From a cyanobacterium endosymbiont of Epithemia turgida isolate EtSB Lake Yunoko (lineage in GTDB: Bacteria > Cyanobacteriota > Cyanobacteriia > Cyanobacteriales > Microcystaceae), in the NCBI RefSeq assembly GCF_000829235.1, contig NZ_AP012549.1, positions 2,100,001 to 2,132,000 on the forward strand: DNA of 32,000 bases, written 5' to 3'. The notes beneath the pieces were generated by a model. That model was not told the origin of the DNA. It saw only the letters and a program-made list of their open reading frames with translations, and made no database searches. Every line of letters starts with the position of its first letter. The stretch's first letter is position 1. Positions 15,509 through 15,954 of this stretch are shown here, piece by piece. The position numbers and the translations under genes are program-made.

Positions 15509-15565
15509 TGTTGACTCTCGCTTGTTAGACAATAAGTGTGTACACTAGGGAAGTTTTGACCGTTT

Positions 15566-15638
15566 CTGACGTAAAAATGGGTCGCCAACTGATCGTTAGC
15601 TGCGGGATGTCCCATCGAACCCTTAATCTTTACGTCAG
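15566..15638 (-). promoter_or_regulatory. Stem-loop in the nifH leader, 58-130 nt upstream of the nifH ATG
   Basis: A perfect 10-bp inverted repeat CTGACGTAAA (15566-15575) / TTTACGTCAG (15629-15638) has an inner ATGGG/CCCAT helix (15577-15581 / 15611-15615). Confidence 0.55.
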
Positions 15639-15954
15639 GGCTGGGATTTCTTCCACTATAGAAGCTAACTCTTGGTTAAGAAAAGCTTCCCCCGAGAAGA
15701 GCAAAAGCTATAAAACTTCACTCACGGGGTGACGTTGTAGAGATTTAAACCAAACCTAACCATGGCTGTGTCATGAGCAAGTAGATAAACAACACTCGTT
15801 CGTGACCATCCTTGATGGTCGGCTATTTCTAAACGTCCGGCGCGAGAAGCGATGCCTATGGTGGAGATCGCTCTCGACCTTTTTGAATTAATGACATGGG
15901 CTTTTTTTGGGGTAGTTGATAATAAATAAATCGTTGATAGTTTATTCTATGTTG

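Follow-up and report, generated by a model that had tools for sequence, protein, structure and literature searches.

Structure and conservation of the nifU-nifH spacer

We analysed the spacer between nifU and nifH in the cyanobacterial endosymbiont of Epithemia turgida, isolate EtSB Lake Yunoko (assembly GCF_000829235.1), within a stretch of 32,000 nucleotides (nt) of contig NZ_AP012549.1 (positions 2,100,001 to 2,132,000, forward strand), called the window here and used for all coordinates. The nif cluster lies on the minus strand of the window in the order nifB, nifS, a shrunken nifU, nifH, nifD and nifK (Table 1). We consider it fairly probable that the spacer (15509-15954, minus strand) is the 5' leader of the nifH(DK) messenger RNA (mRNA), that it was inherited from a free-living Crocosphaera/Rippkaea-like ancestor, and that it combines a hairpin with a translated upstream open reading frame (uORF) on which ribosomes arrest.

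With 43-46% G+C, the spacer exceeds every other non-coding stretch of the window, these having 24-42%. A first-pass annotation, made from the letters alone, had counted 166 of 360 nt (46.1%) in 15541-15900 and 15% in 25501-25560, and both counts are exact. All the inverted repeats it quoted are likewise present: 15566-15575 is the exact reverse complement of 15629-15638 over 10 bp, with ATGGG (15577-15581) facing CCCAT (15611-15615) nested within, and GACCATC/GATGGTC (15804-15820) and GACGTT/AACGTC (15731-15736/15832-15837) are exact reverse complements as well. A perfect 10-bp inverted repeat occurred in 1 of 200 shuffles of the region. What does not hold is the choice of strand, as the annotation read the plus strand and the genes are on the minus strand, so that the relevant RNA is the reverse complement. 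The fold of the whole spacer has z = -4.24 on the minus (nifH-sense) strand versus -2.66 on the plus strand, and for the nifH-proximal domain alone the values are -4.72 sense and -1.80 antisense.

We gathered nifH loci in three ways, namely from one genome per species, from metagenomes by a leader-specific DNA pattern, and by exact-protein look-ups; loci are cited by L numbers. The spacer could be aligned in blocks to its counterparts in four other diatom-endosymbiont lineages and in nine Crocosphaera-type sequences, giving 14 leaders in all, and the same leader is found in the same place in free-living relatives with intact nifU. From the nifU stop to about 15900, endosymbionts and free-living forms do not align, which provides an internal neutral control. 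UCYN-A and L105 retain the first module of the leader only (module 1, 15897-15839).

Six helices, P1-P6, were drawn manually and scored on the 14 leaders. Their pairing is maintained: 97.1% of cells are paired compared with 38-47% when partners are slid, compensatory changes occur at five pairs (18 cells), and the covariation score of 0.130 lies above the 0.03-0.046 of slid partners and was reached in none of 500 shuffles. The suggestion of a nifH leader that is conserved and structured, and that remains under selection while its locus decays, is therefore borne out, with spacers aligning across 13 relatives and helices kept in 97% of cells against about 44% in slid controls; the proposed comparison of orthologous spacers yields both conservation and compensatory changes, from few independent events. 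Many substitutions produce G.U pairs (P3, P5), which on the plus strand are A.C mismatches. Thus, the structure belongs to the nifH-sense RNA.

The individual helices differ in how widely they are kept. The P1 stem (-18.2 kcal/mol, z = -2.44) is invariant across the 14 leaders. P2 closes a loop of 4-5 nt in free-living Crocosphaera (GACGUU-AUUAAA-ACGUC in L015, L089, L093 and L096), whereas in the window it encloses an insertion that is found only in the five diatom-endosymbiont leaders. The GACCATC hairpin highlighted by the first-pass annotation is real but sits in this insertion and is missing from free-living relatives; read on the plus strand, it is the sole terminator-like match in the spacer. 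Unrelated insertions occupy the same P2 loop in L013 (2633-3003) and L097 (8027-8451), the latter with tandem GACTTCT repeats, and this loop looks like a hotspot that tolerates insertions.

In P3, A-U and G-C pairs of Crocosphaera are replaced by G.U in the window, where pairing is possible only on the minus strand. P4 (z = -2.27) shows a compensatory change from C-G to U-A between clades and is missing in three Crocosphaera sequences (L013, L089 and L094). The P6/P5 domain folds at -39.4 kcal/mol with inner hairpins GGG-ACAU-CCC and GCUAAC-GAUCA-GUUGGC, and has compensatory G-C to A-U changes in L002 and others. In the 3' tail, AGCGAGA(R)UCAAC-N-AUG is invariant in all Crocosphaera-clade leaders. 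RNAalifold recovers P1, P3, P5 and P6. It also proposes that CGUUA, just 3' of P1, pairs weakly over a long range with UAGCG at the nifH ribosome-binding region; this predicted contact is possible but amounts to only 5 bp with one covariation event. Together, P2-P6 (module 2; 15837-15549, about 290 nt) form a multi-stem RNA domain that is specific to the Crocosphaera clade and previously undescribed.

Joint Genome Institute (JGI) annotations call NifH at 327 amino acids (aa) in some relatives (P0007, P0010, P0083 and L085, the last at 2501-3484), with a start 37 codons upstream, inside the leader; in L085 this start falls in the P5/P6 region. The longer form is almost certainly a miscalled start codon rather than a real extension.

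Table 1. Genes, reading frame and RNA elements at the nifH leader of the window
Feature	Position	Strand	Description
nifB	18221-19672	minus	
nifS	16448-17647	minus	
Degenerate nifU	15956-16386	minus	Upstream boundary of the spacer; old stop 15958-15956
uORF	15856-15897	minus	13 codons, MSLIQKGRERSPP then stop; 347 nt upstream of nifH and co-oriented
Hairpin P1	15839-15879 (core 15843-15876)	minus	5' arm is uORF codons G-R-E-R-S; loop is Pro-Pro-stop; 3' arm AUCGCUUCUCGCGCC
Helix P2	15731-15837	minus	GACGUU (15837-15832) pairs with AACGUC (15736-15731); 95% of cells paired
Endosymbiont-specific insertion in P2 loop	15737-15831	minus	Contains GACCAUC-aag-GAUGGUC hairpin (15820-15804)
Hairpin P3	15699-15723	minus	GAGUGAAG (15723-15716), loop UUUUAUAGC, UUUUGCUC (15706-15699); 98% of cells paired
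Hairpin P4	15661-15689	minus	GAAGCU (15689-15684) pairs with AGCUUC (15666-15661); inner UCUU/AAGA stem
P6/P5 domain	15549-15654	minus	GGAAG (15654-15650) pairs with CUUCC (15553-15549), enclosing the 12-bp stem and inner hairpins
12-bp stem in P6/P5 domain	15638-15627 / 15577-15566	minus	CUGACGUAAAGA / UUUUUACGUCAG
Leader 3' tail	15509-15548	minus	Mostly unpaired; nifH ribosome-binding region ...UGUACACAC UUAUUGUCUAAC AAGCGAGAGUCAACA-AUG
nifH	14636-15508	minus	Gene served by the leader
nifD		minus	Follows nifH
nifK		minus	Follows nifD

A conserved reading frame over the P1 hairpin

Judged by its position, its conserved arm and profile searching, P1 is a homologue of the Anabaena nifH processing-site stem-loop and of the nif-associated conserved RNA structure, and hence an already known element. 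It lies within the non-coding stretch that directly precedes nifH, on the nifH strand and 331 nt from the nifH ATG at 15508. An nhmmer profile built from the Crocosphaera leaders matches a single block in Nostocales, Pleurocapsales and further groups, AGAGCGATCGCCTCC with its preceding ATG. Compared with the pan-cyanobacterial consensus GAGCGATCGCCTCCA, the window's GAGCGATCTCCACCA, from which the 5' arm and loop are formed, has two differences, both at third codon positions. The first-pass annotation was right to invoke the Anabaena stem-loop; the equivalent hairpin is 15843-15876, which it had listed and which is the 5'-most in the RNA, so that its 'proximal' hairpin is the wrong one if nearness to nifH was meant.

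The nifH1 processing-site stem-loop of Anabaena variabilis is reportedly the subject of studies by Ungerer (2010) and by Pratte and Thiel (2014). In this species the nifH 5' end arises by processing and not by transcription initiation, the spacer has no promoter activity, and a conserved stem-loop marks the processing site. Loss of this stem-loop reduces the half-life of nifH, which is 33.8 min compared with 8.6 min for nifU (PMC4284476; the mutational result is for A. variabilis only). Similar stem-loops occur at the Anabaena processing sites of vnfH, vnfDG and fdxH (PMC4284476). P1 resembles the Anabaena nifH1 element in lying in the spacer upstream of nifH and in carrying the conserved left arm GAGCGAUCNCC, and differs in its distance from nifH (about 330-370 nt versus about 100-150 nt), because the clade-specific P2-P6 domain is inserted between hairpin and gene.

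According to a 2026 survey of 202 cyanobacterial genomes in NAR (Nucleic Acids Research), a 93-nt conserved structure with eight significantly covarying pairs lies upstream of nifH (PMC12873609). This structure, K02588_upstream.h2_1, is labelled 'nitrogen fixation associated' there and has two stems, 18 bp and a highly conserved left arm; P1 followed by P2 could correspond to its two stems, with P2 here enclosing a 95-nt insertion. The survey also describes a second conserved structure upstream of nifK in Nostocales (PMC12873609). In the published accounts that we covered, the Anabaena hairpin and the conserved structure are treated as RNA only, and the accessible text of the survey mentions no overlapping reading frame (PMC12873609).

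P1 also carries a reading frame. The first-pass statement that no frame is coding overlooked a 13-codon minus-strand ORF, 15897-15856, that has orthologues upstream of nifH. Its codons are ATG TCA TTA ATT CAA AAA GGT CGA GAG CGA TCT CCA CCA TAG, of which 15870-15859 encode R-S-P-P and 15858-15856 are the stop. In one frame, the conserved left arm and loop of P1 read E-R-S-P-P; an in-frame ATG precedes them, as does AGGAG in free-living forms. Corresponding peptides, each ending at a stop codon, are MSLIQKGRERSPP in the window, MLSNQKGRERSPP in Crocosphaera, MISQKKGEERSPP in UCYN-A and MYTTKFSVERSPP in Anabaena sp. WFMT, and in other orders 2-27 unconserved codons follow the Pro-Pro.

An ORF of the form M-x6-17-R-[S/A/P]-P-P lies upstream of nifH at 22 of the 23 reference loci that have nifU directly upstream. 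Twenty-one are standard and one is a RAPP variant (L003, MLTIHLLHEDCVAPQHASRAPP...) with a longer N-terminus, about 230-300 nt upstream of nifH; the only exception is L025 (Spirulina sp.), which has nifU-nifH and no recognisable RxPP ORF. Further RAPP variants are MQSFSFLIRNVLERAPP (L008 and L010) and MSLLPIVFAVERAPP (L031), and L055 has the RPPP variant MSHSNTLKAVERPPP, followed by a stop. No comparable short ORF is present at Frankia, Paenibacillus and Nitrospirota-type nifH loci, as far as their nifH start fitted the search pattern. Across the six frames of the window there are just two occurrences of R[SAGP]PP, the one outside the uORF being antisense to nifD.

To avoid circularity, homologues were also defined by nucleotide sequence, taking for every nifH the 15-mer in the upstream 700 nt that best matched the consensus. 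Variation among true homologues is confined to third codon positions, to the Glu codon (which becomes Gly or Trp) and to the Ser codon (which becomes Ala in RAPP or Pro in RPPP), with zero changes at first or second positions of the Arg or Pro codons. ERSPP is still encoded after three or four synonymous changes (such as GAA CGT TCT CCT CCG and GAG CGC TCT CCC CCT; L012, L016, L018 and L023). An in-frame ATG without an intervening stop lies 6-12 codons upstream in 49 of 55 nucleotide-defined instances, compared with 0/55 and 0/55 in the other two frames, and a Shine-Dalgarno (SD)-like motif precedes the uORF in 26 of these 49, against a background of 18%. The uORF is thus constrained at the level of its codons.

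The E-R codons fall in the 5' arm in 43 of 51 instances, and the arrangement with E-R paired and Pro-Pro in the loop occurs in 55%, compared with 10% when flanks are shuffled; the mean minimum free energy is -24.5 kcal/mol, versus -16.6 kcal/mol with shuffled flanks. Additionally, the 3' arm tracks synonymous codon change (UUGAACGUUCUC/GAGAACUGUUCAA in L018; UGAACGU/ACGUUCA in L055). Taken together, this arrangement and the co-varying 3' arms indicate that constraints on RNA structure and on coding are both real.

Two nucleotide-level explanations of the core were considered and rejected. HIP1 (GCGATCGC) lies inside the core, yet lineages without GCGATCGC still encode RSPP, so it is not by itself the cause of conservation. 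A role of loop CCUCC as an anti-Shine-Dalgarno mimic fails in that the window, UCYN-A and others have CCACC yet keep Pro-Pro. Our literature search returned no earlier description of a nifH leader peptide, a nifH uORF, an ERSPP motif or a cyanobacterial arrest peptide linked to nitrogen fixation, and those uORFs long enough to be called are named only 'hypothetical protein' in databases. The core hairpin is already known, and what is new is its reading as an overlapping RxPP micro-ORF together with the clade-specific domain downstream.

Proposed ribosome arrest and its alternatives

RxPP with x = G, A, S or P emerged from random-library screens as supporting ribosome arrest (PMC12992588). In RAPP-type arrest the Arg is irreplaceable, Ala can be exchanged fully for Gly and partially for Ser, Asp or Pro, the N-terminal context is flexible, and EF-P does not relieve RAPP-containing arrest peptides; RSPP is also among the most avoided tetrapeptides in bacterial proteomes (PMC12992588). 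Arrest involves a backbone contact of residue x (PMC10951233). Variation among the nif uORFs, with x as S, A or P, Arg and Pro-Pro fixed, a variable N-terminus and no relevance of what follows the Pro-Pro, matches this rule set. RAPP/RGPP uORFs have been reported as absent from annotated Cyanobacteriota (PMC12992588).

The nif uORF shares with known RAPP-type arrest peptides (SecM RAGP, ApdA/ApdP RAPP, ApcA RAPG and the RQH family) its small size, its co-oriented position upstream of a putatively regulated gene, the invariant Arg and Pro-Pro with a small residue between, and the variable N-terminus (PMC12992588, PMC10951233, PMC10987492). As a putative arrest peptide it differs in being far shorter (13-40 codons), in having nitrogenase rather than sec or yidC downstream, and in an overlapping hairpin that leaves the downstream SD unmasked. 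It also has no secretion or membrane signal, and thus cannot be a 'monitoring substrate' that is released by force. We accordingly rejected membership among the Sec/YidC monitoring substrates (SecM, MifM, VemP and ApdA/ApdP) for this hydrophilic 13-residue peptide with nifH downstream, although the same mode of stalling is possible.

A stalled ribosome that stabilizes a 5' end has a precedent. In Bacillus subtilis, ribosomes that stall on the short leader ORF of ermC or ermA, close to the 5' end, obstruct 5'-to-3' decay and thereby stabilize the downstream message. The erm system, however, needs a macrolide and mainly controls translation through alternative hairpins, whereas stalling on the nif uORF would be intrinsic and free of ligand. 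The 5' hairpin of Escherichia coli ompA, at or near the mature 5' end, protects from 5'-end-dependent RNase attack, which is the kind of protective role proposed in the literature for the nifH hairpin; unlike the latter, hairpins of the ompA type are not embedded in a conserved reading frame.

From these features we infer that the uORF is translated, that ribosomes arrest on it and that the stalled ribosome protects the message. The spacer would be transcribed by read-through from upstream in the operon, which we assume because it holds no promoter-like site, and which has been shown for the Anabaena nifB1 promoter. On the read-through transcript, a ribosome translating module 1, in which the R-[S/A/P]-P-P core lies in the 5' arm and loop of the pan-cyanobacterial hairpin, would arrest at RSP|P. 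With the first Pro in the P site its footprint, going by general footprint sizes, would take in the 5' arm and the loop along with most of the 3' arm, so that stalled ribosome and hairpin would be alternative occupants of the same ~40 nt. Either state could block 5'-end-dependent decay (RNase J/E) arriving from the unstable nifB-S-U part, and the block would define the 'processed' 5' end and give a long-lived, abundant nifHDK mRNA. P2-P6, followed by the unpaired nifH ribosome-binding region, would probably tune nifH stability or translation, the weakest step of the scheme. We thus propose, tentatively and with somewhat less than even confidence, that the processing-site stem-loop is the RNA face of a translated M-x6-17-R-[S/A/P]-P-P peptide, and that an arrested ribosome alternating with the hairpin sets the 5' end and stability of nifHDK mRNA.

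Several observations weigh against this proposal or against the wider leader model. RSPP was only 'partially permissive' in ApdA/ApdP contexts (PMC12992588), and the nascent chain at the stall would be just 12-15 residues long, RAPP-type arrest this short being undocumented in the arrest-peptide literature that we covered. The SD before the uORF is lost in all five endosymbiont lineages (AAAGCCC-ATG), in all of which the M-x7-ERSPP core is intact. Two sister lineages lack the uORF stop and have a lengthened ORF, L082 through TAG to GAG and L085 through a 5-nt deletion; this loss is harmless under the arrest model but fits decay too. The L082 change (2114-2260) extends the ORF to 48 aa, annotated as hypothetical protein WP_281152268.1, and an identical protein is found in the Epithemia clementina endosymbiont EcSB. 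HIP1 could add to nucleotide conservation of the core where present. Identity of the leader to its relatives is no higher than at nifH four-fold sites, a biased benchmark that we rejected as uninformative for neutrality because nifH synonymous sites are themselves very conserved. For module 2, covariation rests on very few independent events in sequences that represent essentially two clades, L083 has P3 deleted and the P5 3' arm degraded, and the complete absence of P2-P6 from UCYN-A and L105 means that the domain is dispensable in some lineages.

The leader might instead be a pure RNA element, a 5' stabilizer or RNase signal whose uORF is untranslated and whose pattern arises because a protein or RNase recognizes the left arm and the loop CCNCCN. 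This is how the hairpin is explained in print (PMC4284476 and PMC12873609), and it agrees with the invariance of the P1 stem in the clade, with the missing SD in the window's own lineage and with the near fixation of GAG and CGA at synonymous sites, a constraint at the nucleotide level. It leaves unexplained the one-frame distribution of in-frame ATGs, the SD enrichment and the persistence of ERSPP through three or four synonymous changes, as well as why the non-synonymous variants at x are only A and P, residues that RxPP arrest allows (PMC12992588). We regard it as unlikely, though still deserving real weight.

Regulation at the DNA level, in which the spacer would hold a nifH promoter and operators with the ACGT-core motifs GACGTT, AACGTC, CTGACGTAAAG and CTTTACGTCAG bound by a nif regulator such as CnfR or NtcA, appears very improbable. 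The ACGT-core inverted repeats are conserved, and older literature, as discussed in PMC4284476, placed a nifH promoter in the corresponding Anabaena spacer; in that spacer, nonetheless, promoter activity is absent and the nifH 5' end results from processing (PMC4284476). The window's spacer contains no sigma-70-like promoter site, where 2.2 are expected by chance, and its folding is strand-asymmetric. Its tolerance of G.U replacements, compensatory changes and large loop insertions is the behaviour of RNA rather than of operators.

There is very little to recommend the view that the spacer is a functionless remnant of a protein gene or of a mobile or repeat element. The adjoining nifU is a pseudogene, and the insertion at 15737-15831 and the losses in L083 look like ongoing erosion, but the same leader stands beside an intact nifU in free-living relatives and its insertions and deletions are not multiples of three. 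Stop-to-stop fragments of at least 20 aa in the six frames of the spacer gave no significant Pfam/NCBIfam match, which speaks against the coding remnant that the first-pass annotation had named as the finding that would overturn its reading. The leader is single-copy in the window, so we also discarded a repeat or miniature inverted-repeat transposable element. The Rfam scan suggested earlier found no family for the spacer (with Rfam 15, no match at E <= 10 in 15300-16300 and none at gathering score across the whole window), and a scan for tRNA and tmRNA gave no match.

A functional antisense product, either a plus-strand RNA or the 64-codon ORF at 15538-15732 that the first-pass annotation had rightly dismissed, is hardly credible: the ORF exists and the plus strand has a more stable fold than shuffles (z = -2.66), which is expected for the reverse complement of any structured RNA, but stops or frameshifts interrupt the ORF in 12 of 13 aligned relatives, including the closest (L085), only L082 reading through, the ORF has no Pfam or other family match, and on the plus strand G.U pairs become A.C mismatches and domain z-scores are much weaker.

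Erosion of the nif locus and implications of the leader

NifH of the window is 97% identical to that of the Rhopalodia musculus endosymbiont and 95% identical to that of 'Cyanobacterium sp. uoEpiScrs1', the closest named proteins, and 89% identical to UCYN-A NifH. These identities point to a spheroid-body-type endosymbiont of a rhopalodiacean diatom as the source of the window. With 757 bits (E = 2e-223), P0001, a protein of 486 aa from a European Nucleotide Archive (ENA) assembly, outscores every normal NifH, which it exceeds in length by about 200 aa; a gene fusion or a wrong gene call may account for it.

In nifU, an internal deletion of about 155 residues is common to the window and its closest relative, L085 (L085:1747-2160), and removes the IscU-like scaffold and the Fer2_BFD domain, leaving 31 N-terminal residues and the C-terminal Nfu-like domain. 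The window additionally has a 13-nt insertion and a frameshift near 16080-16100, and its CxxC has become C-G-S-R. An independent and larger deletion is found in L086 (L086:1727-2059), where CxxC is lost too. By contrast, nifU is full length (294-296 aa) in the R. musculus endosymbiont (L082), uoEpiScrs1 (L083) and UCYN-A. On this sequence evidence, some diatom endosymbionts seem to fix nitrogen without a NifU scaffold of their own.

Other parts of the window bear on erosion as well. An ORF at 18032-18217 (minus), between nifB and nifS and in the position of fdxN in relatives, encodes 61 aa with no Pfam match on record and may be another eroded nif-cluster gene. At 24900-26430 and 29336-29941 lie long gene-free stretches of 24-25% G+C that lack any ORF of 60 aa or more; they probably represent genes lost to erosion, as is typical where an endosymbiont genome is reduced.

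A single promoter yields far more nifHDK than nifBSU message, for which 'processing plus a stabilising stem-loop' has been the explanation, no determinant being known for either cleavage or protection. An RxPP micro-ORF lying exactly over that stem-loop offers a hypothesis that mutation can test, in which ribosome arrest acts as the 5' protector. If this is correct, an arrest peptide would be documented for the first time in cyanobacteria and in connection with nitrogenase, and the RAPP type would reach a phylum and a pathway from which it has been reported absent. The mRNA of nifH shows a strong daily cycle, and in the Crocosphaera clade it is this gene that the ~290-nt domain fronts.

Module 1 is kept in the most reduced nitrogen-fixing endosymbionts, namely UCYN-A (the nitroplast) and the spheroid bodies of diatoms, including those whose nifU is a pseudogene. 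Its survival in these genomes suggests that the element belongs to those parts of the nif cluster that may have to accompany the operon on its transfer to plants or other hosts.

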